Under the pieces are notes generated by a model, which was given only the letters and a program-made list of their open reading frames with translations, was not told the DNA's origin and searched no databases. From sequence record MN850624.1: a stretch of DNA of 41,906 nt, one strand, 5' to 3'. Below are positions 6,751 to 40,368 of the stretch, piece by piece; the stretch's first letter is position 1, and every line of letters starts with the position of its first letter. This stretch comes from Escherichia phage usur. The translations under genes were made by a program, and so were the position numbers.

Positions 6751-9700
6751 TATTCACCCTTAACTGCTTCGTTGAGTGCCCGGACGCCCGGCACGATTGA
6801 GATGAGTGGGATAGCTTGGATGATGTTACCTGCCGTTTTACGAGCGCCGGACACTGCCTGCTCGGTATCACCAGTCAGCACGCCGCCAGCAGCACTGGTA
6901 GCTGCACCCGCCACACCGTAAGCGCGGTCAAGGAACAGCAAGCCCGGCGCACCGAAGCTACGCTGCTGCCCAGTCAGGACGCCAGTGAACTCAGAGGCAA
7001 AGCCGATAGCACCAAGATAATTCAGCGCTTGGCCAGCCAGCTTGTTAGGTGCCATGGTTTCCGGGTCAGAGAATGCTTTACCGGAAATCACGTTATTGGC
7101 GGCAGTGGCCATCATTGCCAGCGGGTACTGGTACGCCATGAGCGTAGCCATGCCACGCGCACCCTCACGATTCCATGTACCCACCAGAGTCTTGTTGTGC
7201 GTAGCCGCGACGAATCGACGGAACGTAAACAGGAACTTACCCAGTGTACTGAACTCAGCAAATGCAGGCAGCTCACCTACACGAGCGCGAACAATAGCGT
7301 CATCCATGGCATTCATCATGACAATGCGAGAGCGATTGAACACCCCTTCATCCCAAGCGTCGGGCTTGGTGCCATGAGTACCAACCTGCTTGCGAATGTC
7401 AGCCAGCAGCGCGTCATTGGCACCATAGGTTTTCATGGCTGCGATAGCCTTGGCATCACCTTCGGCTGCCTTACGCAGCGTCTGCATCACGAGCGCAGCA
7501 TTGGTTCGAGTCTGGTGGAAGTGGATGTATTTCTGCATGTTGATGAACATCGTGGCGTCACGGGCGTGCTCAAGACGCATAACCCACGGTGACTTGTCAG
7601 CAGAGAACATGTCTTCATAGTGCTGCATGATTGGGCGCATACGGATATCGCTCGCCACGGCAGCGGTCAGAGCTTCCTCAGCATCCAAGGCCAACTGACG
7701 ACCTTCCTTAGTAGTAGCCCTCATTTGCTTAAATAATGCGCGAGCTTCCGGGATTGTACGCATCATGGCGCGAAATGTGTTGACCGCCCCGAAACGTTGC
7801 ATCATCGTGCCGTATTCCACCAACTGCCACAGACCGGACGCAGCCAGACCAGTAGCCTGAGTCAGTGCGGAGAGCTGGCGCATGAACTGCGGCATTTCCT
7901 CGCCGACCGGGGAACCCTGATAGTAGGCCATGATATTGTCATACTGCTCCAGTGCTTGGCGTCGAGCCGTACCATCCTTGATGGATTTGGCCAGAGCCTC
8001 ACGAGCAGCAGCGCGTTCGGCGTCAGTACCCAGTCCAGCCTCATGCAGAGCCAATCGCCCTGTAATGCGGCGGTTGTACGCATCCATCATGCTGGTGATG
8101 CTGTCATCGAACAGGTCACGCACCTGCAAGTTAGGGCCGAGCTGGTGCATCATGTCGATGTTGATACGGCTCTTAAGCATCGACGGTCGGCCAGCGTCCG
8201 AGCCAGATTCACGAAGGAGTGCGGAAGCACGGGCCTTGGCAGCCTCGTCAAGTCCTTTCGAGTTCTCAATGATTTCGAGCAGCTCATCGCGGCCCTCCTT
8301 GTTGATAATCATACCGGAGTTGTCGATACCGTAACCCTTGCGGCGAGCACGCTCCACCATGGCATGGGCAATGACGTTGGCAGTCGGACGGTCAGTACCG
8401 ATACCGCGCTGCACGGCAGTCGTCATCTGCTTCATGAATGCTTTCTTGCCAAGCAGTTGCTCAGCCTGCTCAACCTTGGTTACGTTCATCCGACGCGGGT
8501 AGTAGTACGGGTTCTTCTCCACGAAGCCCGGCTCAACCATACCCTTGCGCTCCAGCTCCCGGCCCACGGCGCGAGAGTATTCGCCCAGTCGGTCAGCAGC
8601 ATTGGCCACGTTCGGGTTAGCGCCACGGAAGTTGTTGTCAATCATGCGCTTGTCCAGCTCAAGACGAACAGCAGCTTCGAACTCCTGCTGCGCCCGGCGA
8701 TAGCCAACCGGGTCACGGAAGCGTCGGATGTTACTCCAGCCATCAGTGGTCAGGGCATGGCGCAGGGTGTCCTCGTACTGATTCAGCAGCACACCGAAGC
8801 GAGCCTGAGTCTCGCGCTGGATTGCAGCAGCAGAGGTCATGTTCGGATTCAGCGGGTCATCCAGCAGACGCCCGGCCAGAGCACTGGCTTCGTCAGAATG
8901 CTGACTGAACGACTTGAACAGTGACCACTCAAGGAACGGGCGCTTGGGGTTGGTCTGCTCACCACGGCGAGCGAGGTCGAGTCCACGCTGAGCCGCAGCT
9001 CGGATGGATTCAGGAACCTCATCAGTCTCCATTGCACCGCGACGCCCGAAGCCCAGTGACATTGCCAGCGGAGACATGGCGTTGTTCGGGTCGAACTGCG
9101 GCGGGTTGTTCGGGTCAATCCCGTTACGGCGCTGCATCTCTGCCGCAAATTCCTCCGGCGACAGCTCATCAAGGCGACGAGCTGGTGCAGCGGCTGGGCG
9201 ATAGAATGCAGTGGTGGCCGCCCCGTGCAGGGCAGCCGCAAAGATAATCTCGTTCTGAGACACTGGGCGTGCTTCATTACCCACCGCTGTCATAGTGACA
9301 GCAGTTGAAGCTGCACCGACAGCGGCGGTTCCGAGGCGACCAAGTTTCAGGGCAGTGCCTGCTCCCATCGAGAGCAGGTCAGTGGCGAGGTACAGCGGGT
9401 CAGCGAATTGCAGCACTGCGTTCATCACTGGCGCAGTGTGAGCCAACTGGGTACGCTCGCGCATCTCTTGGAGCTGCTGTGTACGCCAGTTGAACTCATC
9501 CATTGATTTGGACTTGAACAGGAACGTGCGGTCATCCTCAGTCACCGGGAACTGGACATTCTGCAATGCCTCGTTCGGGTGGAAGTCAGGGTCAGCCTGA
9601 AACACAGGCTTGTTGATTGCCGCATCAAAGAGCTGAGTGGTATCCCAGTTCTTCACAGAAGCGCTCAAAGCCGTGGCAATTGGGGTTGCTTCCAGTTCCT

Positions 9701-20162: not shown

Positions 20163-20423
20163 TTAACTCCCGATGCCGAGGTTGCTTGCTACACCCGTTC
20201 CGGTGCGGCGGCGTCGGCTCGATAAAGTGTCGGAGGCCGAAGTAACCTGACCACCTGCCTGAATCGTCGGGGTGTTATCGTTCGCCAAATCAGCCTGCAA
20301 GTTCGCATTCAAGGTTTCAGCCTTGACCTGATTCGGGTCGGTCTTAATCGTGTACTGGGGTTTCTGGCTGCCGAGTCCAAAGACCGAGCCAATCCCCTTG
20401 AAAACTTTACCTACGCTACCCAT
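20163..20423 (-). CDS. small virion protein, gp6.7-like (hypothetical)
   Basis: 86 aa Gly/Ser/Thr-rich with a basic C-terminal stretch (SRRRRTG), immediately upstream of the portal gene. Confidence 0.4.
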   Translation of the reverse strand: MGSVGKVFKGIGSVFGLGSQKPQYTIKTDPNQVKAETLNANLQADLANDNTPTIQAGGQVTSASDTLSSRRRRTGTGVASNLGIGS

Positions 20424-20842
20424 TACGGTTTCTCCAAATCAATGAAGCGGTACTCCTGAACGTAAGGCCGCACCATGTGGGAGTAACCGCACCAACGCAC
20501 ACCCTCGGAACGGGCCACGTCTTTGAGTACACGGAGGATGACACGCATCACTCCACGGTTTCTGTACTGGGGCCAGACGTATGAGGCCATAACGACCACC
20601 ATCTCGCCCACATGAATATCGAATAACCTGCCGATGTGAGCAACAGCCATGAGGCTGCCGTCATCGTCAGTGATGTAAACGTCAACACAGCCATTGGCCG
20701 TAGCATCGTACATGCTGTCAACGATTACATCGGGAGATAGGTTCGACCATGGCCGCTCGGCTTGGATGCCCTCGGCCACTGCACGGCGAATGTCAATCGG
20801 CATTGTCGTGTGTGATGTATTTCCCATAGTAGTAGCTTTCAT
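20423..20842 (-). CDS. GNAT-family N-acetyltransferase (putative)
   Basis: 'VWPQYRNRGVMRVILRVLKDVARSEG' matches GNAT motif A (R-x-x-G-x-G/A followed by a helix). No clear RBS for any of the N-terminal Met codons, so the start is uncertain. Confidence 0.45.
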   Translation of the reverse strand: MKATTMGNTSHTTMPIDIRRAVAEGIQAERPWSNLSPDVIVDSMYDATANGCVDVYITDDDGSLMAVAHIGRLFDIHVGEMVVVMASYVWPQYRNRGVMRVILRVLKDVARSEGVRWCGYSHMVRPYVQEYRFIDLEKP

Positions 20843-21110: not shown

Positions 21111-21139
21111 AAATAGTCAAAGAATACAGTACCTTATTA
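21088..21139 (-). promoter_or_regulatory. conserved element A, candidate phage-RNAP promoter (late)
   Basis: Minus strand reads TAAGGTACTGTATTCTTTGACTATTTATGAAAGCTACTATAGTGATAG; the core CTACTATAG resembles the T7/SP6/K11 promoter core CACTATAG. Starts at the RNAP stop codon; followed by a GC stem-loop (GCCCCGTCAGTGGCGGGG) and a strong RBS. Confidence 0.4.
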
Positions 21140-23569
21140 ACAGAAGAATTTGGTAGATTCTTTGACAAGATTTATGTCCAAGCTGCCCTTAGCTGGAGCC
21201 TCACGATTATACGCTTTGGCAAGCTGTTGAATTGGGTCATGTTGCTCATACATCTGCACGAACTTTTCACGGATGACTTTGTGCAGTAACCCTGCATGAG
21301 CAGCAGCAACACCGAATGAGTCATGGATGGATACCATGTAAACCCCGTTATTCCACATCTCCCACAGCACGCGCATCATGTGGCTGGCGTCCATGGCGTG
21401 TACGAAATTCGGAGCAATCGCAGCCGCACACTTACGTCCGTCAGGCTTATCCAGATACTCCCTCAGTTTAATCTGATGGACACCCATGAGGTGCAGGTGC
21501 ATCGGGGATTCCTTGGACGCTTGGTACAGGTTCGGCACCCGCAAACCGGATGGTGCAATAATCTCCACGTACTCGCCCATGCTCGCAGCTTCCAGCGCGA
21601 TAGCCTGCAACCATGCCATAAGCTCAGCAGCTTTCGGCACAACGCGAGGGATAGCGTTCCACATGAACTCAGCAATGAACTGCGCACACTCCAGCAGGGT
21701 CTTCCCTTCCGGCAGCTTGACGCGGTTCTCACGCAGGTACAGGCAGTAGTAATCCACCATGCCGTGCCGGGTTGCCCCGTACACGTAGGTCATCACTGGC
21801 TTCTTCGCCATCGCCCGAACAATGCCGATGGACACCAGCCAAGCACCCATTGGCGTCGGCGTGACTGCCTCACTTTCTTCAAGAGCCTGCATCGCCGCTG
21901 CTGCCGTCTTAAGATAGATGTCTGCTTTGCGTCCCACGCTATTGATAAGATTGACAGCAGCACCTCCAACCTCATCTCGTAGCATCGCACTGAGGTGCTG
22001 GAGTCCTGAACATGTAGCGTCCCATTGCGTAACCACTCGGCAGGGATAAGTCTCAGGACTTCCTGAGTCGATAGCTCGAATGAGTTCAACAGAAGCAGCC
22101 CACGCTGAGATAGGGCTATCGGCCTCTGACCAGAACGAATCAAATGCCTCTGGAAGACGGCACGCCTCACGTAATCGGGGGAGTGTTTTGTCCGTCCACG
22201 CTGCCCGGTCTTCGAAGTCTGTGGCGTCGTATCCAAAACAATTCGCAACATGTACCTTGAGCCAGAACAGCCCCTCGTTTCCGAGAGCCACTGGTTCAGC
22301 AAGTTCGAGCAGCGCTCGCACCGCGTCGATGGACTGAGGGTTAAGGGTCGAAGAATAATAAATTCGGCCCCGCGTATCGGCGTAAGTCGGGAGATAAATC
22401 CTATCGTACTGGGCATAGCGCTCGGCCTCTTTGACTGCGCCGTTCAGTGCCAGCATCTGCGACGTGAACTTACGCAACTCATTGTAATACAAGCGAGTCT
22501 TCACCTTGTACTCATGAGCTTCCGCATCCATCTGCTGCTGCATTTCCGGTGGGAACTTGCTGATGTACTGGGCGAAGCTGACGCCTGCCGGGATAGTGAA
22601 TGGGAGCTTAGGCTCACGGGGCGGCACAGGCAGCCCCATAATGCCTGTACGGTTCGTTCGCAGGAACTCCAGTACCATTGGGTTAACTCGGTACGGAACG
22701 CTGCTGAGCATCATACACGGCTCTATAACGGGGGTCGGGTCAACGCCCAGCGCACGATACCCTTTGTGGTTCATGCGACTGATAACCCGGTACATTGCTG
22801 ACTGCCCCGGCGAGTGCCACATACCACTGCGACCGTTCGGAGCAATCTGCGCTGGCGGTACAATAAGCGGTGGGCAGCACATGCCATCGGCACGCGGCAT
22901 ATCCAGCCAGTCATTCATTGTGGCCAGCACATCTTCGTGCAGGGCGAAGTGCGCAGTACCGCGCTGACGGTGGTTGCCGCCGACGCGGATAGTGCAGACC
23001 AGACCAGTTGGCTCAACGCACTGCATCATCAGCTTGCCCATGGTGATGAGCGCACGCTGAGGCAGGATATCAATCTCTACCCCAACATTGGCTGCCGACG
23101 CTTTGGCTTTGTTGTAAGCATGGTTCGCTGACTTGGTGCGTGACTTCTTCACGTCAGCCTTAACCTTCTCCATGTACGCCGCGCCGACTGGCCCTGACTT
23201 CTTCGCACGCTGGTACACCACCTCAGCCATGAGCGCCTTACCCATGTCTTTCAGCAGATTCAGTACCGCCTGCTCCGACGCTGCACCGGACACCGCCATG
23301 CTGAGCGCCAGCGACGAACACGCCTTGACGCCCAGCTCACGCATAAATGTCCGGTACTGCGCACCAGCACCACGGGTCGTTTCATTCAGGAGGTCTTGCA
23401 TCGCAGCTTCAACTTGAGGGAAAGCCTCAACCATCATACGTTGGAGCAACGGCACCGACCCTGCCCGGCCAGCGGCCATGGCATCTTTGATATTGTCCAG
23501 CCAGCCCTCGCGGTGTCTGGCTCGCGCTTCTTCTTCAAGTCGAATCTGCTCAGCAAGTAAGTCCATCAT
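21137..23569 (-). CDS. single-subunit DNA-dependent RNA polymerase (T7-like)
   Basis: 810 aa; '[20 protein letters not shown]' (T7 '[20 protein letters not shown]'), '[14 protein letters not shown]' and 'SIHDSFGV' match T7 RNAP catalytic motifs. Confidence 0.92.
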   Translation of the reverse strand: [810 protein letters not shown]

Positions 23570-23805
23570 TACTCCGTTGGTTGGTCATAGCCCGGCTGCA
23601 CTTGGCAGCGCATACCTTGTTCCCGCAGCACTGAGCGTTGCAGTGCTGGGTCAGTCACGCCTGTGCCACCACAGGCTTCGCATTCAGTTTGGACAAGCTC
23701 GTGTCGAATGGTCATGCTGGTGAATGTGCCACAGCCGTGGCACGCCCCGCATACACCTTTCTCGACCACGGTATCCTCAATGGCTCGTTGGTATCTGCTC
23801 ATCAT
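23569..23805 (-). CDS. small zinc-finger protein (DnaJ-type CxxCxGxG repeats)
   Basis: 'CGACHGCG' and 'CEACGGTG' motifs; ATG at 23805 preceded by GGAGAT. The ORF track extends the frame to 23958, but that extension overlaps a better-supported small ORF in another frame. Confidence 0.5.
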   Translation of the reverse strand: MMSRYQRAIEDTVVEKGVCGACHGCGTFTSMTIRHELVQTECEACGGTGVTDPALQRSVLREQGMRCQVQPGYDQPTE

Positions 23806-23810
23806 ATCTC

Positions 23811-23990
23811 CTATGCCAAGTAACAAATGAACCACGTTGGCAGCACAGCCACCAGCAACCATACGATGAAGCCAGCAGCCCCGGCGCGTTGCGGGTAGTG
23901 GATAACGTTGTAGGATTGGCAGGCATTCAAGCAGCGCAGCGTGAAGCATACAAACCATGCCAGAGCAATAACGTAAAGTAAAGCACTCAT
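23811..23990 (-). CDS. small two-helix membrane protein (not in ORF track, 59 aa)
   Basis: Hand translation: MSALLYVIALAWFVCFTLRCLNACQSYNVIHYPQRAGAAGFIVWLLVAVLPTWFICYLA. Its ATG overlaps the stop of the upstream gene (ATGA); two hydrophobic helices. Confidence 0.35.
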   Translation of the reverse strand: MSALLYVIALAWFVCFTLRCLNACQSYNVIHYPQRAGAAGFIVWLLVAVLPTWFICYLA

Positions 23991-24571
23991 TTAGTTTTCC
24001 TTAAAGCCAGTTCGAGAATGAACAGTGCATTGCAAGCGGCGTGCGCCAGATGGTGCAGGCCAGATTCCGGGTCGAGTTCTTCACCCTTACCCACCGCAGT
24101 CAGGTGCCGAAGCAGTGCTGACTTGTATCGTTCCTCACCTTCCGGCACAGTCTGCCATGAGTGAGCCGCGTACTTCTGAGCGCCGAAGGTTAGCACGCTG
24201 GCCACAGCCTCCAGTGCATTCGGGCAGCCGTCGAACAGCAGGGCCATGCGAGGCTTACCTCCGTCATACTTCATGCCGCCCGGCCCACCAGCACCCGCAC
24301 CAACGGCCACCGCCACCTCAACATCGGAGGCCGGGTCATATGGGTCAACTGGGATGAACGAAGTTTGCACTGGCTGTACCTCATACGGCTCCAGTACCAG
24401 CACCTCAGTCTTACCTTCATGCACGCAGGTGTAGTAATCACGGCTGTCATTTGGTACATCGTATGGCTCATCATAAGTCAGGATGACGCCGTTGTCTCGA
24501 AGCTCATTGAGCCGGGGGCTGTGGTAGTCACGGTTGATATCCAGACAGAACTTGTCGCCACGTTTACTCAT
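23987..24571 (-). CDS. hypothetical protein with 'KYDGGKPR' domain (possible dATP/dGTP pyrophosphohydrolase-like N-terminal domain)
   Basis: C-terminal half 'MKYDGGKPRMALLFDGCPNALEAVASVLTFGAQKYAAHSWQ' resembles a phage domain family linked to nucleotide pyrophosphohydrolases (from memory, not searched). Start set at the Met overlapping the upstream stop (ATGAGTAA); ORF-track start is 24625. Confidence 0.35.
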   Translation of the reverse strand: MSKRGDKFCLDINRDYHSPRLNELRDNGVILTYDEPYDVPNDSRDYYTCVHEGKTEVLVLEPYEVQPVQTSFIPVDPYDPASDVEVAVAVGAGAGGPGGMKYDGGKPRMALLFDGCPNALEAVASVLTFGAQKYAAHSWQTVPEGEERYKSALLRHLTAVGKGEELDPESGLHHLAHAACNALFILELALRKTK

Positions 24572-25067
24572 CTTTATCCCCATCGTATTTTGCATTGGCA
24601 TGGACATACTCATGGTTGTCTTCATACCGGGTTACTTCGTACACCGTGATGCCGAGGCTACGCATGAAGTCCACAATATGTGGCAGGTCATCAAAGGCAC
24701 AGACGATGTTCTCAATGCCAATGTCCTCCAGCGCAGCACGCTTCATCTCAGTGTCTTTGCGGCAGTCGCCAATCTCACGCATGATGAGCTTGTCATACAC
24801 CACACCATTGTCATCGAGCCACTGCTCGGTTACTTCACGGGCCACGGCTCCGCGTCCGGTCAGGATGATAATGCGATACGTGAGGGCCAGTGCGTTCACA
24901 ATATCAATCGTGTCCTGAAACGCTGGGTCGTCAGCGCCAGCCAAGTTGAACTCGGCCCACGCTTCGTCGAGATGCCTGCGCTCCGGTGGAGGCAGCAGGT
25001 GCAGACGCCAACGGCCATCAGCCAGCGTGCCGTCAAGGTCTACTACTACGGTGTCTTTCATGTGCAT
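24564..25067 (-). CDS. HAD-superfamily phosphatase (polynucleotide 3'-phosphatase / nucleotidase-like)
   Basis: 'VVVDLDGTLADG' is the HAD motif I (DxDGT). Start chosen at ATG 25067 with RBS GAGGAAG; ORF-track start is 25160. Confidence 0.6.
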   Translation of the reverse strand: MHMKDTVVVDLDGTLADGRWRLHLLPPPERRHLDEAWAEFNLAGADDPAFQDTIDIVNALALTYRIIILTGRGAVAREVTEQWLDDNGVVYDKLIMREIGDCRKDTEMKRAALEDIGIENIVCAFDDLPHIVDFMRSLGITVYEVTRYEDNHEYVHANAKYDGDKDE

Positions 25068-25257
25068 CGTGTGCTTCCTCAAGAGCGAAGATAATATCTT
25101 TGACATATGCCCACGGCACCCACACCTGCTCCCCTTCCTGCGAGATACAGACGGTGCCATCTTTGTACAGCTCGACCTGAGTGTTGGCCTCCCAGTCTAT
25201 CGAGAGGCCGTCATCTTTGAGCTGCACCACATCTTCTTGGTACAGGGTTCTACTCAC
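25033..25257 (-). CDS. hypothetical protein
   Basis: 74 aa ORF; start overlaps the stop of the metallophosphoesterase gene. Confidence 0.4.
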   Translation of the reverse strand: MSRTLYQEDVVQLKDDGLSIDWEANTQVELYKDGTVCISQEGEQVWVPWAYVKDIIFALEEAHDAHERHRSSRP

Positions 25258-26381
25258 TCCAACATCTCCGGGCTAATGGTGAATCGTGCGACCTCACCGT
25301 ACCGGGCATGATAAGTAATCACGCTCGCGCTGCGCTCACTCAGCCAACCACCACGAGAAGCATAGGCATCCTTAGCTGCCAGCGTCTGGTGCTGCTCAAC
25401 AATCATGACAGCAGACTCCAGCACCTTCTTGTGATGCAGGTGGCCAACGTGTGCATACGCATGTTTGGTTCGGCCATACACTTCGCGGAACTTCGCAACC
25501 AGTACAGTCTCCAGTTGCTCAGCCTTACGCTTGTGACCATGGTGGAAGAACAGTGCCGTCTCGCCATGCTCATAGCAGTAGTACGGGTCAGGGCTGCGGT
25601 CAACAGTGACACGCGGCTCGTCGGCGTACAGTACGTGCAGCAGCTCGCGCATCCAAATTGAGCTGGCCATGTCGTGGTTGCCCTCGGCGCACACTACGTG
25701 AACCTGCGGGAACTTCTCCAACAGCATGGAGATGATACGGCGCTGCGCCCGGATAGCCACACGCACCAGCTTCTGGAATCGCGTGTCTGCATCCAGCACA
25801 TGCCCACTCGATGGCGTCACTGCATCCAACCCATCCCAGTGCAGGAAGTCACCGAGCTGTCCGAAGATAGCAACTTGCGCTGGCGGCGCACTGGCAATGG
25901 CTGCCGCGAACCACTTGACCAGCAGGTCTTCGGCAATCTTCATATCCCAGTCATCACCAGTTTCCTCTGACCACGCCAGCATACCGAGGTGGTAGTCAGT
26001 GAGGATGAATAGGTTCAGCAGCTCAGCAGGTGCCGGGCCGCCGCCGTATGGCAGGGCCACTTCCGGGGTAATGGTTTCGCTGATTGCATCCACAGCTTCT
26101 TGCAGCAGGGCCAGCTCCTGCTCCCGGTCGAGTGCAGTCTTCACCCACTGCATGACCACGTTGCCGTCCTTATCGTACAGCGTGGACGTACCCTTCACCG
26201 CATATGGCTCCGGCACTTCCTTGGTCATGTCGTGCTCAGGACTCCAGCCGCTCTTGGCAAGCTGGCGCTTCCGGTAGCGAATAGCACCCGTGGACATGTC
26301 ATGCTTCTCAGCAATCTCAGTGGTGCCAAGACCCTCAGCGATATCTGCCTTGAGCTGTGCGTTACTTAACTTCGTCATCAT
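25254..26381 (-). CDS. calcineurin-like metallophosphoesterase with N-terminal helix-turn-helix domain
   Basis: Metallophosphatase motifs in order: 'ILTDYHLG' (D-x-H), 'QLGDFLHWD' (GD-x-x-D), 'EGNHDM' (GNHD), 'HHGH', 'VGHLHH'. N-terminal 'LGTTEIAEKHDMSTGAIRYRKRQL' looks like an HTH. Confidence 0.65.
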   Translation of the reverse strand: MMTKLSNAQLKADIAEGLGTTEIAEKHDMSTGAIRYRKRQLAKSGWSPEHDMTKEVPEPYAVKGTSTLYDKDGNVVMQWVKTALDREQELALLQEAVDAISETITPEVALPYGGGPAPAELLNLFILTDYHLGMLAWSEETGDDWDMKIAEDLLVKWFAAAIASAPPAQVAIFGQLGDFLHWDGLDAVTPSSGHVLDADTRFQKLVRVAIRAQRRIISMLLEKFPQVHVVCAEGNHDMASSIWMRELLHVLYADEPRVTVDRSPDPYYCYEHGETALFFHHGHKRKAEQLETVLVAKFREVYGRTKHAYAHVGHLHHKKVLESAVMIVEQHQTLAAKDAYASRGGWLSERSASVITYHARYGEVARFTISPEMLE

Positions 26382-26794
26382 TTCCCCTTAGTGATTACGG
26401 CACGCGCTTTAGCTGCTGCTGCCTTTTTACGTCTGTCGGCTGCTGCCGCTTTCTTCTCAGCCTCAGTCTTATGCGTCGGATACATCAGACCTGTGTGCTG
26501 CTTACGTCGCCACTCGATGGCGCTATCCAACCAGTCATCCACTGTGCGCTGGCGCTTCGCTCGGTTGGCAGAGTTCTCCACCTTACCGAGCTGAGCATTA
26601 CACCAGCGGCAGATGACACCGCGAATTTCCCCAGTCACATGGTCGTGGTCAACCACCATGAGCTTGAGGTCAACCATCGGCTCATCACAGAGTGGGCAGT
26701 TGCAACCCATCGCATTCTTCCGAAGCTGCAACAGAGTCGCGCCAGTCACTTTCCGCATACCATTCCTCACCCAGTTTCTTATGCAGCCAGACAC
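26378..26794 (-). CDS. endonuclease VII-like Holliday-junction resolvase
   Basis: 'CNCPLCDE...VVDHDHVTGEIRGVICRWCN' matches the endonuclease VII zinc/HNH-like signature. Start probably an internal Met because the ORF overlaps the exonuclease 3' end. Confidence 0.65.
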   Translation of the reverse strand: MSGCIRNWVRNGMRKVTGATLLQLRKNAMGCNCPLCDEPMVDLKLMVVDHDHVTGEIRGVICRWCNAQLGKVENSANRAKRQRTVDDWLDSAIEWRRKQHTGLMYPTHKTEAEKKAAAADRRKKAAAAKARAVITKGK

Positions 26795-27659
26795 GCAGCT
26801 CCTTGCTCAAGGTCAGCGTGTTCAAGTGGGCTGCGAATGAGTAGGTCGGCGTGCGGTACAGCCACAGCGCCACTGCCTCTGGCCACGGGTTCTGGTCACG
26901 CTGCATGTATTCACGCAGCACCAATTCCGCAACCACTGATTCATCATCAATCTCTTGATAATCAACCAGCATATCGTAGGCAGTCTGCTTCCCAATCTTC
27001 TTCACGCCAGCGATATTGTCGGCGGTATCGCCCATCAACATCTGCGCCCAAAAGAAGATAGGCCCGTGGCCGACCAGCGACTTGTCGCTTTTCGTTTCAT
27101 GCCACCACAGCCTGCCAATACCAACGCACGGCTCCAGCACCTTGTTGTCATACGGGTCAAGGAATCTGCCCGGCCAACAACGCAGGTCTTTATCCGCGCT
27201 GTAGATTACTGCATCGTTAATGCCAATCGTCCACGCATCCATGATTAAGGTATCGTCAGCCTCGAACTCAAAGTTCAGGTGGACGTACCAGTCCTCACCA
27301 TCCGGGACGTTGAACATGTTGCGGCCAATCGCTTTACGCAACGGCTCGACCAGACCGGGCTTGCGGTCTTTGTCTCGGTTGCCTTGGTACAGCTTGGCCC
27401 CACGCAGCTTGTACCGTCCAGCTTTCGTACACTCCGCAGCGGTCAACTCGATACGAACTGACTGAGCATTGGCGAGGAACTTGGCGGTCAGTACCCCGGA
27501 ACAGAACCGTGTCTTCGCCGTCTCGATGTTCTTCGTGGTTGCTGCCGCGACGTAGACTGTCGAGTCAGCATCGCACAGCAAGATACGACCAGACACGTAA
27601 CCATCAAACTGGTCATCGAGTTCCTCTGCATTGTGGAGCAAGCGTTGAAGTCTACTCAT
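26685..27659 (-). CDS. 5'-3' exonuclease (FEN-like, T7 gp6-like)
   Basis: 324 aa; 'GDTADNIAGVKKIGKQTA' matches the H3TH motif of 5'-3' exonucleases; position after the DNA polymerase. Confidence 0.8.
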   Translation of the reverse strand: MSRLQRLLHNAEELDDQFDGYVSGRILLCDADSTVYVAAATTKNIETAKTRFCSGVLTAKFLANAQSVRIELTAAECTKAGRYKLRGAKLYQGNRDKDRKPGLVEPLRKAIGRNMFNVPDGEDWYVHLNFEFEADDTLIMDAWTIGINDAVIYSADKDLRCWPGRFLDPYDNKVLEPCVGIGRLWWHETKSDKSLVGHGPIFFWAQMLMGDTADNIAGVKKIGKQTAYDMLVDYQEIDDESVVAELVLREYMQRDQNPWPEAVALWLYRTPTYSFAAHLNTLTLSKELRVWLHKKLGEEWYAESDWRDSVAASEECDGLQLPTL

Positions 27660-27695: not shown

Positions 27696-28583
27696 TTACA
27701 GGCTAGGCAAACCGAAGTCAGCGTCGCCAGTCACGTCCGGTTCTTTCTTGCTGTCGGCTTCACCCTTCACCGGAAGCTCAGCGACTTCCTGCTTAACTTC
27801 CTTCACTTCCTCCGGCTGGCCTACATCACCCAGCTCCGGCAGCTCAGCGATGGCAGAGCCAGCGCCAGCACCATTGAGCAGCAGGTCAAGAGGTGAGCCG
27901 GGGAACTCAGGAGACTCAAGCAGCTTGTCCTGAATCCAGTTCTTGGATTTGCCATCGTCGTTCTTGCCGTCGATGTACAGCGATTCCCAGTCTTCCTTGG
28001 TCGGACGGTTCCACAGGAACAGCTTGAACAGCGTCTCGTCTTCGACTTCCGGCACCGGGTACGGCTGGTCAGTTACCGGGTCAACAGCGAGCATGATGTT
28101 CTCAAGGTCGATGTTCGCATACACCTTCTTGTTCTCACCCTCGCCAGATTCATTGTGGGTAATCGGAACGATGAAGGTGTGGTTCAGCAACTGCGCGAAG
28201 TGCTTCGCAGTCTTGTCCGGGTTCATGCGCTTGAACAGTTTGTAAGCGCCGGACTTACTGTTCAGGTCTTTCTTCACAGCGATGAACTGCGTGCGAACTT
28301 TGCCCGGCACCATCTTACCATTGACAACTTCATGGTAAGTCTCGCCGTTCTTGGCCTTGCCCCACAGTGCGAACTGGAGGAAGAACTTATTGACTGGCGG
28401 TTTGTCCGGTGCCTGCTTAGTGGCGTGTGGCCCCACCTCAACGTAGCCAACCAGACGGGCCAGCGCCTTACCTTCCGGCAGGAGCTTACCACCACCAGAC
28501 GTGGCTTCGTTAAAGTCAAGTTCTTCCTCGTCAACATACTGTTCGACGATGGAGTTCATGCGGTTCAATACTGATGCGGTCAT
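27696..28583 (-). CDS. hypothetical protein with acidic C-terminal tail; possible ssDNA-binding/replisome protein
   Basis: 295 aa between polymerase and exonuclease; C-terminus 'EEVKEVKQEVAELPVKGEADSKKEPDVTGDADFGLPSL' is acidic with a penultimate aromatic residue, reminiscent of SSB-type tails. Confidence 0.4.
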   Translation of the reverse strand: MTASVLNRMNSIVEQYVDEEELDFNEATSGGGKLLPEGKALARLVGYVEVGPHATKQAPDKPPVNKFFLQFALWGKAKNGETYHEVVNGKMVPGKVRTQFIAVKKDLNSKSGAYKLFKRMNPDKTAKHFAQLLNHTFIVPITHNESGEGENKKVYANIDLENIMLAVDPVTDQPYPVPEVEDETLFKLFLWNRPTKEDWESLYIDGKNDDGKSKNWIQDKLLESPEFPGSPLDLLLNGAGAGSAIAELPELGDVGQPEEVKEVKQEVAELPVKGEADSKKEPDVTGDADFGLPSL

Positions 28584-31069
28584 ATGCTAATACCCTTACT
28601 CGTCAGGAAGTTACGTTTGAACTCCAGCACTTCTTCGGCTGTCGTCTCTACGTGATGCTTTTCGTACATGCTTGGCCCAGCTTCTACCTCTGCCGGAAAC
28701 GGAACTGTCAGGTTATATTCAGGCCAGATGTGGTTGTAGTATTCCGGGATGGATTCCATGATTGCCTTGAGTCCAACGAAGAACTCGTGAGGGCAGTCAG
28801 GTGCCACGTCGAAATAGAATGCGTCATGCACTTGGTTGATGGGAACCACACGCCCACCAAAGAAGTCATTGGCCAGCAGCCAGCGGAACAGCAGCCCACC
28901 AATTCCCTGTACCCAAAACGCTGTCTCACCCTGAATAGGATAGTTACGCATTTGAGTTGGTTTGTATTCCATCAGATAAGCACGCGCCGCCTTGTTCCAT
29001 TTCTCGTACTGACGGAATGAATAACAAGTTCCACCCGGCGAGCGGAAGTGACCACGGCGATACACCTGCCACCGTCCGTTCTCATCTTGTTCCTTGAACA
29101 CGTTGCTCTGTCCACTACGCTCAACGGCGGGGAAGATTACAGCGTCGAACCATTCTTCAACTTCCGGGAACAGACCCTTCTCGTTGTCGATGAACGCCTG
29201 TGCTTCTTCCTCCGAGCAACCAGTCGAGTAGGCAATGCCTCGCGCTGTTGCACCATACTGATAGGAGAACGCCTTTGGCTTAATGTCAGTACGCATCTGA
29301 CTGTATCGTGCATGGTCAGGATGGGTTTCATCCTTGCACTTCTTAAGCACGTCCTCGTATGGCTCATTGAGTTGAGCAGACAATCGCATACAGTGCATGT
29401 CGATACCATCGAGCAATGCACGAATCAGGTTCTTATCCTTACTGAACCCGGCCAGCCCCACCACTTCCAGTGCCGAGTAGTCAGCCTCAACGATGCGGCC
29501 ACCTTCACCAAAGCGGGAGGTGAACATCTGCTTAACTTTACTCGTACCTTTACGCGGCAGGTTCTGGCTGTTCGGTCGCTGAGATGACAGTCGCGTCGTC
29601 TCAGTCGCGGTCATGTTGATGGTGTGGTGTACGATGCTGTCCGGCTGGATGAACTGCATCATCCCCGACTGGCCAGTCACGTTGCCATCCTCATCAAACG
29701 TCTCGCTGAGGTAGTAGGTGCCGAGGTCTTTCTGCGCCTTGGCCCGGTCAGCAATCTCCACGACGCCGGGAATCTTACGAGCTGCCAGAATGTCCAGCAC
29801 CTCACCCGCCGTACTGAATACAGGAGAACCGTCAGCCAGCTTGCGCTTACCTACCCAGTCACCAGTGCGCCGGAGATATTCACCCGGACGCTTCGGGTCT
29901 TCCCACTCAAGGTTGTCGGCAATCTCCCGCGCTCGTCTGTCCTGCACACGCAGCAGACCGGGCAGCCGGAACAGTACCTCACCCCACTTGGTGTCCACCT
30001 CATCGGTCGCCAGCTTCTCAAACTTCGGCTCGCCTTTGTGCTTGCCGCTGGAGTAGATAGTCTGGTGTACCTTCTCAACCGGGTCGTACCATAACCCAGT
30101 CTCGTCATCCCATACGCATTCGCTGGTATGCTTGAGCCACTTGTCCTTGCCACGCTTGAACAGTGGTGCATCCACCTTCACGTAAATGAGATTGCCATCC
30201 CCATCTCGGCGCTCGACTCGCGCCTTGTACTTCATCACGCCGCCGAACACGAACGCGCTCATGTGATATGCAGACGTGAACTTGAATTGCTCACGCGCTT
30301 CACTCGGCATGTCGGCAGGCAGGTAGCCAAGCAGTGTCTCGGTCAGCCCACTGATTGCATCCTGTAACTCACGGCGGTTACGCTCTGCTACCTCGCGGTC
30401 AACATGCAGACCGGAGTGCATCATGTACGCCCACATGAGCATACCTTCGAACCGGGTCAGTGCCATCTGCAACATGCCCTGCTTCGTCAGCTCTGCCCAC
30501 TGACCAACGAACAGCTTGGTCGTGTTCTCAATATCCCCGGACGGCCCGGACAGATACTCGCTCAGCAGCTCAGCGTCAATCTGGCTGGTCAGATAACCTG
30601 ACTCCCACATTGCCTTGACTGCATCCACCTTGTGAGTACCACCATACTTCGGTGCTGTCTCGTTCAAGGATGGGTACTGGGATTGCTGGTGTGTCAGCAG
30701 ATACTCAGCATACGCGGTACAGAATACGCGGCCACCTCGTAAGAGGAACGCCGTGAACTCGTCACCGTAATGCTCGAACCACCAGCTCAGTTCATACGGA
30801 GCGTTGTGTGCAACCAGTATGTTCGTATCCGGGTGGAGGTGCAGGCTCTTGTTGGCCAGCCAATCCTCACGGGATGCGTACCGATATTCCTCACGCTTGT
30901 AGAACTCCCAGCCATCCTTGGTCAGCACACAGTCGCGCTGTCCCTGCATCACCACGTAGTTGTCAGGGCAGCGCGGCGATGCCAGCTCCCCATACCACTC
31001 ATGGTTCTCAGTTTCAACGTCGATAATCTGTGCTCGAATAGCCATCAATCCCCCGCTATGCTTTGCCAC
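28580..31069 (-). CDS. DNA polymerase, family A, with 3'-5' exonuclease domain
   Basis: 829 aa; 'IIDVETE' (exo I), 'DYSALEVV' (motif A), 'KAFSYQYGATA' (motif B), 'QVHDAFYFD' (motif C). Confidence 0.9.
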   Translation of the reverse strand: MAKHSGGLMAIRAQIIDVETENHEWYGELASPRCPDNYVVMQGQRDCVLTKDGWEFYKREEYRYASREDWLANKSLHLHPDTNILVAHNAPYELSWWFEHYGDEFTAFLLRGGRVFCTAYAEYLLTHQQSQYPSLNETAPKYGGTHKVDAVKAMWESGYLTSQIDAELLSEYLSGPSGDIENTTKLFVGQWAELTKQGMLQMALTRFEGMLMWAYMMHSGLHVDREVAERNRRELQDAISGLTETLLGYLPADMPSEAREQFKFTSAYHMSAFVFGGVMKYKARVERRDGDGNLIYVKVDAPLFKRGKDKWLKHTSECVWDDETGLWYDPVEKVHQTIYSSGKHKGEPKFEKLATDEVDTKWGEVLFRLPGLLRVQDRRAREIADNLEWEDPKRPGEYLRRTGDWVGKRKLADGSPVFSTAGEVLDILAARKIPGVVEIADRAKAQKDLGTYYLSETFDEDGNVTGQSGMMQFIQPDSIVHHTINMTATETTRLSSQRPNSQNLPRKGTSKVKQMFTSRFGEGGRIVEADYSALEVVGLAGFSKDKNLIRALLDGIDMHCMRLSAQLNEPYEDVLKKCKDETHPDHARYSQMRTDIKPKAFSYQYGATARGIAYSTGCSEEEAQAFIDNEKGLFPEVEEWFDAVIFPAVERSGQSNVFKEQDENGRWQVYRRGHFRSPGGTCYSFRQYEKWNKAARAYLMEYKPTQMRNYPIQGETAFWVQGIGGLLFRWLLANDFFGGRVVPINQVHDAFYFDVAPDCPHEFFVGLKAIMESIPEYYNHIWPEYNLTVPFPAEVEAGPSMYEKHHVETTAEEVLEFKRNFLTSKGISI

Positions 31070-39975: not shown

Positions 39976-40368
39976 TTACGCCTCCACTACCCAAAATTGC
40001 TCACCATCGTAAGTCCAAGCAGTGAACTGCCCGGCTTCCATCTCCGCTTCTGTCTTGCTGACAAACTTGCCAGCAGGCTTGCCCGGATATGGTGAATCCA
40101 TGAAGATTGCATCATTGTCATCGATCACTACCATGATGCAGTCCTGTTCAAAGGCTTTACAGAACAGCTTAACAGCCTGTCTGATTTCGTAGATTCCATC
40201 GACAGGAAAGACCATGCTTAACTCATACGCATTGTCGAATTTGCCTGTCAGTGTGACCGGAATCACTCCGAACATATCCTGCACCGTTCGCAGTGCCTTG
40301 CAATGAAGCGCCAGATTAACACACTCAGCATTGTTCTGGCGGTATGCGCTTGCATAGATACGGTACAT
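39976..40368 (-). CDS. hypothetical protein, first early gene
   Basis: 130 aa; RBS GGAGAAA 6 nt before ATG 40368; first ORF downstream of the tandem sigma70-like promoters. Confidence 0.55.
   Translation of the reverse strand: MYRIYASAYRQNNAECVNLALHCKALRTVQDMFGVIPVTLTGKFDNAYELSMVFPVDGIYEIRQAVKLFCKAFEQDCIMVVIDDNDAIFMDSPYPGKPAGKFVSKTEAEMEAGQFTAWTYDGEQFWVVEA

Follow-up and report, generated by a model that had tools for sequence, protein, structure and literature searches.

Why would a T7-like phage carry genes for three different phosphohydrolases between the genes for its DNA polymerase and its RNA polymerase? The question is raised by Escherichia phage usur (sequence record MN850624.1), for which an earlier note, made from the sequence alone, had described a cluster encoding a protein with a KYDGGKPR-type domain, a HAD phosphatase and a calcineurin-like metallophosphoesterase (MPE) fused to a helix-turn-helix (HTH). 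The window, by which we mean the whole stretch of 41,906 nucleotides (41.9 kb) that was analysed, is the complete genome of a T7-like phage belonging to the genus Bonnellvirus of the Autographiviridae. The three enzymes, here called P1, P2 and P3, were found where the earlier note had placed them, all on the minus strand: P1 and P2 were identified by Pfam and P3 by its match to phrog_704 together with its motifs and a structural model, with E-values that rule out chance. They are ordinary members of known phage families in a conserved operon, and the cluster is not a discovery in itself. As to their joint role, the reading we favour, at about even confidence, is that the trio is the part of a DNA-metabolism operon concerned with the breakdown of host DNA, the salvage of deoxynucleotides and the shaping of the nucleotide pool, rather than with RNA or signalling molecules. 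The genes and their domains are given below (aa, amino acids; ORF, open reading frame; dNTP, deoxynucleoside triphosphate).

23987-24571, minus strand: P1, DUF5664/PF18909 protein, predicted dNTP pyrophosphohydrolase (194 aa; the open frame reaches 24625, 212 aa)
23996-24277, minus strand: DUF5664 helical domain of P1, the putative catalytic part (aa 117-210 of the 212-aa ORF; KYDGGKPR, GAQKY, RH, GE-x-x-DPE-x-G...HLAH)
24305-24553, minus strand: variable N-terminal beta domain of P1, predicted to be SH3/KOW-like
24564-25067, minus strand: P2, predicted stand-alone HAD 3'-phosphatase (167 aa; the open frame reaches 25160)
25254-26381, minus strand: P3, HTH-metallophosphoesterase, predicted Mn-dependent DNA nuclease (375 aa)
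25257-26021, minus strand: metallophosphoesterase core of P3 (aa 121-375; D129-x-H131, G177-D178-F-L-H181, G234-N-H-D237, H281, G313-H-x-H316)
26253-26363, minus strand: three-helix HTH at the N-terminus of P3 (aa 7-43); the third helix is basic

Family assignments and predicted activities

The suggestion that the KYDGGKPR domain of P1 might be related to nucleotide pyrophosphohydrolases was borne out both by a profile search and by a characterised homologue. P1 matched PF18909 (dGTP_diPhyd_N, formerly DUF5664) with an E-value of 3.9e-34 and 117 bits against a cut-off of 27, over profile positions 4-93 of 99, and the KYDGGKPR motif itself occupies aa 119-126 in the numbering of the 212-aa ORF. 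BLASTP aligned P1 with ALY10775.1 of Arthrobacter phage Wayne (45% identity over 77 aa, E 6e-13), a stand-alone DUF5664 protein that converts dATP, dUTP and dGTP to deoxynucleoside monophosphate (dNMP) and pyrophosphate (2026; PMC12884076). With dATP as the substrate, the Wayne enzyme has a Km of 20 µM and a kcat of 0.48 per second, and the assays were run with Mn2+ as well as Mg2+ (PMC12884076). The Pfam name of PF18909 ('N-terminal domain') suggests a non-catalytic accessory part of the DUF5664-DUF550 MazZ enzyme, but DUF5664 is not a mere accessory domain, because the stand-alone Wayne protein is catalytic (PMC12884076). Residues K151, Y152, W157, Y167, R173, H174, E182, D185, E187 and H192 are invariant in the P1 family and have counterparts, identified by inspection, in the Wayne protein. 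Judged from this homology, P1 is likely a dNTP pyrophosphohydrolase of the all-alpha NTP-PPase (MazG-like) superfamily, and dUTP or other non-canonical dNTPs would seem the most sensible substrates for a phage with a canonical genome. Neither a search with the single sequence nor one with a profile from the P1 alignment found a match in the PDB.

Judged from a GGGGA Shine-Dalgarno-like motif, an 8-nt overlap with the stop codon of the HAD gene and the start annotated in Escherichia phage glasur, P1 likely begins at M19 (24571). The N-terminal domain differs among homologues and is missing in the congeneric phage Lidtsur, whose 102-aa homologue (91% identity) has MKYDGGKPR as its very first residues, so that the functional unit is the helical domain. 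DUF5664 domains were found in 871 phage records, mostly of podoviruses of 40-49 kb, where the usual label is 'hypothetical'. Many Pseudomonas and Vibrio phage records, as well as phrog_5033 and phrog_2252, say 'endolysin; inhibits RNA polymerase', which looks like a propagated mis-annotation. A gene that is commonly left without a function or mislabelled thus gains a likely biochemical one by homology to the enzyme characterised in 2026.

P2 proved to be the DxDGT-type HAD phosphatase that had been read from the sequence. It matched PF25109 (HAD_PNKP) with an E-value of 2.9e-15 (57 bits; cut-off 27.6) and phrog_415 with an E-value of 6.5e-57; its ORF extends over 24564-25160, and the likely start at 25067 matches the glasur annotation. 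The only relatives detected in the PDB are the phosphatase domains of Pnkp1 (4xrp, E 4.5e-8) and of T4 polynucleotide kinase (PNK; 5uj0, 1ltq), with which the motifs DxDGT (DLDGT), (S/T)GR, RKD..K and DD align, and D10, D12, T14, R21, T70, G71, R72, D105, K109 and D126 are invariant among 22 homologues. No 5'-kinase domain or P-loop was found in P2 by Pfam or by alignment, all 167 aa being accounted for by HAD, and its close homologues, mostly of 150-240 aa (range 149-264), have HAD-type Pfam domains only. Pfam scans of 28 ORFs, covering the early and middle region and a few others, detected no RNA ligase, DNA ligase or polynucleotide kinase, although very divergent ligases could escape such scans. 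Given the lack of a kinase in P2 and of a ligase in the scanned ORFs, the full T4 Pnkp/Rnl heal-and-seal pathway is therefore not encoded. The C-terminus of P2 (24564-24590) reads ...NAKYDGDKDE, which is similar to the KYDG(G/D)K that opens the DUF5664 domain of the next gene. A role of this tail as a conserved mimic of the DUF5664 motif was considered and rejected: the likeness is confined to close relatives, distant HAD homologues end in H-G-x-DK, and it is probably a coincidence.

P3 matched no Pfam profile, that of Metallophos (PF00149) included, and its relative in Salmonella phage SETP7 reached PF00149 and PF12850 only below the cut-off. Because the family is too divergent for the Pfam Metallophos profile, its membership of the superfamily rests on motifs and fold. 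The match to phrog_704 is full-length (E 1.8e-144). In an alignment of P3 with 45 relatives (46 sequences, down to 35% identity), D129, H131, G177, D178, N235, H236, H281 and H316 are invariant, and 90% or more of the sequences share H181, G234, D237, G313 and H314. The AlphaFold model (pLDDT 90.4, pTM 0.79) places the HTH helices at residues 7-15, 20-26 and 31-43, followed by a beta-hairpin and a helix (aa 60-101) and, from aa 121, by the alpha-beta-beta-alpha sandwich of the MPEs. The description of P3 as an HTH-fused MPE with all five motifs is thus upheld by the near-invariant ligands and by the model. For the N-terminal part, the family profile has weak matches to sigma-H region 4 and GerE (E 0.035-0.046), and relatives of P3 match the Pfam families GerE, HTH_23, HTH_28 and HTH_8.

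The structural neighbours of the P3 model are led by archaeal PolD DP1 (15.6), Mre11 (14.8) and SbcD (14.7), with MJ0936 (13.6), LpxH (13.3), YfcE (12.7) and Rv0805, of the class III cyclic-nucleotide phosphodiesterases (Rv0805/CpdA; 12.0), further down, and lambda-phosphatase-type enzymes, the kind present in bacterial Pnkp, are not in the top 60. A comparison of the P3 profile with SbcD/Mre11 sequences was marginal (E 0.15-0.7), a single-sequence PDB search with P3 gave no match, and NCBIfam and PADLOC searches were uninformative for P1 and P3. Several viral relatives are automatically annotated as 'DNA polymerase II small subunit'. The model suggests that P3 may be a metal-dependent DNA nuclease of the Mre11/SbcD/PolD-DP1 structural type. 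The HTH fusion, which the earlier note had called unusual, is in fact widespread: the HTH-MPE family comprises 2,041 phage records, 1,945 of them spanning 80% or more of the protein, as well as 4,868 clusters at 50% identity, and is present in about 4% of sequenced phage genomes. Its members occur in Jerseyvirus, Dhillonvirus, T1-like phages, Webervirus, Vibrio and Campylobacter phages and N4-like roseophages, and no experimental work on the family was found in the literature.

Recurrence of the three families and their operon

Whether the trio is a module was examined in 80 DUF5664 loci and 80 MPE loci sampled from IMG/VR, the latter retrieved with a 10-sequence MPE alignment. All loci were scanned with hidden Markov models built from the alignments of this study, and they divided as follows.

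80 DUF5664 loci: all three genes in 5; HAD directly upstream and no MPE in 13; DUF5664 alone in 62
80 MPE loci: MPE-HAD-DUF5664 in 8; MPE-HAD-other gene in 4; a divergent DUF5664 adjoining the MPE in 6; neither in 62

With 62 of the 80 loci of each family lacking the other two, the trio is therefore not an obligate module. In the four MPE-HAD loci, the next gene encodes a deoxynucleoside monophosphate kinase (phrog_139, E 1e-38 to 7e-45) that takes the place of DUF5664; these are the IMG/VR contigs L098 (7144-8285), L099, L165 (2152-3335) and L171 (7065-8155). In L171, the MPE-HAD-dNMP kinase genes form a plus-strand islet between minus-strand genes. The six divergent DUF5664 genes beside an MPE, all independent, lie within about 500 bp of it inside 12-kb windows: three are upstream, one is downstream and two are on the opposite strand, and Pfam confirmed four of the four that were tested. 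We infer that the three families, for which the dNMP kinase can be a substitute partner, come together in differing arrangements at a higher rate than random placement would produce. A further arrangement is seen in Vibrio phage 1.007.O, where the order is single-stranded DNA-binding protein (SSB), MPE, HNH, DUF7768 and DUF5664, with about 1 kb between MPE and DUF5664. At 8375-9237 of this phage, DUF7768 (PF24963, E 2.6e-24) precedes DUF5664, for which it may be a further partner in nucleotide metabolism; the HNH gene, inserted behind that of the MPE, encodes an endonuclease.

In usur, the three genes and all the context genes treated here lie on the minus strand and are transcribed in the order DNA polymerase, 295-aa protein, 5'-3' exonuclease, endonuclease VII, P3, 74-aa ORF, P2, P1, 59-aa ORF, Q-like protein and RNA polymerase. 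The context genes are these.

28580-31069, minus strand: DNA polymerase, a family A polymerase
27696-28583, minus strand: conserved 295-aa protein (phrog_862, no assigned function)
26685-27659, minus strand: 5'-3' exonuclease (phrog_107, E 4.9e-59; PF01367, E 1.8e-8, below the cut-off with 35.2 vs 40 bits)
26378-26794, minus strand: endonuclease VII (PF02945, E 3.5e-14), directly upstream of P3
25033-25257, minus strand: small 74-aa ORF between P3 and P2, overlapping both
23811-23990, minus strand: 59-aa ORF with a hydrophobic sequence, between P1 and the RNA polymerase
within ORF 23569-23958, minus strand: Q-like zinc-finger protein (phrog_6060)
21137-23569, minus strand: single-subunit phage RNA polymerase, downstream of the trio; annotated at the same position in glasur, LF82-23 and LIMEzero

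The three genes form one cluster, as the earlier note had it, but they are not strictly consecutive, since the 74-aa ORF sits between P3 and P2, and the RNA polymerase gene, downstream of the trio, does not directly adjoin it, the 59-aa ORF and the Q-like protein lying in between. Adjacent genes abut or overlap by a few bases across the operon, and no terminator-like site on the minus strand was detected by a simple consensus scan of the stretch from the DNA to the RNA polymerase gene. The region 23500-26800 is about 95% identical to that of glasur and 81-92% identical to those of about 20 other coliphages and Enterobacter, Cronobacter, Pantoea and Kosakonia phages, and Pantoea phage LIMEzero (genus Waewaevirus) has the identical gene order from DNA polymerase through RNA polymerase. 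In GenBank records of the relatives, the three genes are labelled 'putative phosphodiesterase', 'polynucleotide 5'-kinase/3'-phosphatase-like', and 'phosphoesterase' or 'DNA repair exonuclease'.

The 74-aa ORF is also annotated in glasur, has a marginal match to the Pfam family IN_DBD_C (SH3-like integrase DNA-binding domain; E 8.8e-5) and has a counterpart of comparable length in the corresponding place of LIMEzero. The idea that it is a conserved partner of the MPE across lineages was dropped, the counterpart in SETP7 having no similarity to it and that in LIMEzero only weak similarity (E 0.017). The C-terminal tail of the 295-aa protein, ...EPDVTGDADFGLPSL, is acidic, and NCBIfam gives a weak match, below threshold, to a protein for phage replication initiation. 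The PaP3-like phages have a Gp2.5-like SSB after the polymerase, and, judged from its position, the 295-aa protein may be a gp2.5-like single-stranded DNA-binding or annealing protein. The Q-like protein ('anti-termination protein Q-like') has two CxxCxGxG motifs of the DnaJ zinc-finger type; its position is kept in LIMEzero, Lidtsur and LF82-23, and glasur has a short hypothetical ORF there. Other early and middle ORFs recognised in the Pfam scans encode a DnaB-type helicase, a lysozyme, an S-adenosylmethionine (SAM) lyase and a GNAT-family acetyltransferase. The SAM lyase is encoded by an early gene (39976-40368, minus strand; PF23780, E 1.9e-26) with an anti-restriction function of the T3 type. 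The acetyltransferase gene (20423-20842, minus strand; 22.0 bits vs a Pfam cut-off of 20.7) lies between the RNA polymerase and portal genes and is annotated in Lidtsur too.

Weighing the possible roles

The trio is read in terms of deoxynucleotide and DNA metabolism because its neighbours are an exonuclease, endonuclease VII and the DNA polymerase and, elsewhere, a dNMP kinase. P3 would be a metal-dependent nuclease which is kept on DNA by its HTH and breaks down host DNA or processes DNA ends. P2 would strip 3'-phosphates from DNA fragments or 3'-nucleotides, rendering the fragments usable by exonucleases and the polymerase and allowing the nucleotides to be salvaged, and P1 would convert selected dNTPs to dNMP and pyrophosphate, cleaning or biasing the pool. 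Remodelling of the dNTP pool had been one of the options raised in the earlier note, and it is the one best supported, by the characterised DUF5664 enzyme and by the MPE-HAD pairs that are followed by a dNMP kinase. For the HTH-MPE family, which is very common, the repeated linkage, in changing order, with genes for a 3'-phosphatase, for a dNTP pyrophosphohydrolase and for a dNMP kinase leads to a testable hypothesis, namely that host-DNA breakdown feeds salvage.

Several observations weigh against this reading. The margin by which nucleases lead the structural neighbours of P3 is small, and no Rad50/SbcC-type ATPase partner was found among the scanned ORFs of the window or beside the inspected homologues. 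Mre11-type enzymes and endonuclease VII leave 3'-OH ends, so that a source of 3'-phosphate substrates for P2 is hard to name, and it would be odd, with little sense to it, if a phage whose DNA is canonical hydrolysed dATP or dGTP as the Wayne enzyme does. At 62 of the 80 loci sampled for the MPE, no gene of the other two families lies within 6 kb, and the same count holds for DUF5664; part of the synteny of the trio is simply shared descent. In the Jerseyvirus phage SETP7 (4747-6346), the MPE gene stands in a reverse-strand three-gene islet within the tail module, directly after a superinfection-immunity gene (Imm, PF14373), a moron-like placement suggestive of a non-replicative role in that lineage. 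In T1-like phages and Dhillonvirus the MPE gene lies near lysis or terminase genes. From such varied contexts it follows that the role of the MPE may not be tied to replication. Jedunavirus has the MPE gene in yet another very different context, with a small 'polynucleotide kinase' ORF two genes upstream.

An alternative is that the three genes are functionally unrelated neighbours held together only by the ancestry of the replication module, P3 perhaps regulating transcription or recombination via its HTH or mediating superinfection exclusion. The many loci at which each family stands without the other two, the great differences between the MPE contexts in Jerseyvirus, T1-like phages, Dhillonvirus and Jedunavirus, and the Imm gene adjoining the MPE in SETP7 all speak for such an explanation, and Bxb1 gp47, which is annotated as a metallo-phosphoesterase, offers a model for a role in recombination. 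Bxb1 gp47 is a recombination directionality factor and also has a role in DNA replication. It belongs, however, to a different family: common membership of P3 with gp47 and with its homologue gp48 of mycobacteriophage A10ZJ24 was rejected, these proteins falling into phrog_221 and P3 into phrog_704, with a weak partial hhalign match over motifs III-V only. Descent alone also explains poorly why the MPE adjoins DUF5664 in at least three arrangements and HAD plus a dNMP kinase elsewhere, and the invariance of the metal ligands implies that P3 is an enzyme and not only a DNA binder. We regard a trio of unrelated neighbours as rather unlikely. Healing of nucleic-acid ends, which the earlier note had also proposed, would have P2 and P3 clear 3'-phosphate or 2',3'-cyclic phosphate ends on tRNA or DNA cut by defence nucleases and leave the sealing to a host ligase. 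One part of this proposal holds, in that T4 Pnkp and the Pnkp1 of bacterial Pnkp1-Rnl5-Hen1 RNA repair have phosphatase domains to which P2 is homologous; bacterial Pnkp, moreover, heals ends with a calcineurin-type phosphoesterase, and the Jedunavirus 'polynucleotide kinase' ORF is in keeping with it. The kinase and ligase expected of such a system are lacking both in P2 and in the Pfam-scanned ORFs, however, and the fold of P3, nearest to DP1, Mre11 and SbcD and not of the lambda-phosphatase type, weakens the case further, as does the partner of HAD elsewhere, phrog_139, a kinase for nucleotides rather than polynucleotides. End healing is in our judgement distinctly improbable.

The mixture of calcineurin-like, HAD and MazG-superfamily proteins mirrors the effectors of the PUA-Cal-HAD and PUA-MazG-HAD defences, and usur has other counter-defence genes such as that for the SAM lyase, which raises the question of whether the three enzymes destroy immune signals or toxic analogues, such as cyclic oligonucleotides, ddhNTPs, dITP or the m6-dAMP that triggers PUA-Cal-HAD. 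No PADLOC model matched P1, P2, P3 or the 74-aa ORF at E-values up to 0.01, however, and the genes lie in the replication operon rather than among the early host-takeover genes. P3 points to DNA by its HTH and its nuclease-like fold, the characterised DUF5664 enzyme uses ordinary dNTPs, and the known anti-CBASS, anti-Pycsar and anti-Thoeris enzymes use other folds. The degradation of second messengers, the last option of the earlier note, gained no positive evidence from these searches, and we hold an action on immune signals or toxic analogues to be very unlikely indeed.

Comparison with known systems

The DUF5664 protein of phage Wayne resembles P1 in its layout, with roughly 100 variable aa ahead of a C-terminal DUF5664 domain, and in the common elements GA-x-KY, AL-x-RH and GE-x-LDPE-x-G...HLA, whereas the N-terminal domains of the two proteins are unrelated. 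Wayne is a siphovirus with a Z-genome (2-aminoadenine), in which the removal of dATP makes sense, whereas usur has an ordinary family A polymerase and, by Pfam, no PurZ-like ORF among its scanned genes, so that a Z-genome was rejected for it. The nearest functional precedent for P3 is the stand-alone MPE gp48 of mycobacteriophage A10ZJ24, which has phosphodiesterase and DNase activity and degrades host DNA early in infection (PMC12287305). Like gp48 and Bxb1 gp47, P3 is a phage MPE that stands alone and has its gene in the replication region, close to endonuclease VII; unlike P3, they have no HTH, and their motif I begins at residue 10.

The PUA-Calcineurin-CE-HAD and PUA-MazG-HAD defences drain dNTPs, with HAD converting dNTP to dNDP and Calcineurin-CE converting dNDP to dNMP (bioRxiv 10.64898/2026.01.15.699771). 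They combine the same superfamilies as the trio, but they are host defence systems with a filament-forming PUA sensor, whereas P2 is a HAD of the Pnkp type and P2 and P3 have no match in PADLOC. By analogy, the trio, with the dNMP kinase as an alternative component, might be a mix-and-match counter-defence cassette directed at nucleotides, a viral counterpart of the PUA-Cal-HAD effectors, although we consider this a long shot. Beyond salvage, such a cassette would clear away compounds that trigger or execute immunity, either nucleotide by-products left when host DNA is degraded or dNTP analogues that are toxic or serve as alarms; m6-dAMP, dITP and ddhNTPs are candidates.

For the favoured reading, host-DNA breakdown with salvage, the closer comparisons are with enzymes of DNA metabolism. 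In contrast to Mre11/SbcD, PolD DP1 (3qg5, 7dog, 5ihe) and T4 gp47, P3 has neither a Rad50/SbcC partner nor a PolD-type polymerase catalytic partner, and it carries an N-terminal HTH, as well as a beta-hairpin/helix insert where Mre11 has its capping domain and DP1 its OB fold. The T4 polynucleotide kinase/phosphatase (pseT) and Capnocytophaga Pnkp1 share the HAD phosphatase fold and the aligned motifs with P2, but P2 is the phosphatase alone, with no 5'-kinase domain and no partner ligase detected. T4 possesses the gp46/47 nuclease, the pseT 3'-phosphatase, the gp1 dNMP kinase and the gp56 dCTPase/dUTPase, and it is this set, with nuclease, phosphatase and nucleotide-pool enzymes, that the usur trio would resemble as a functional analogue.

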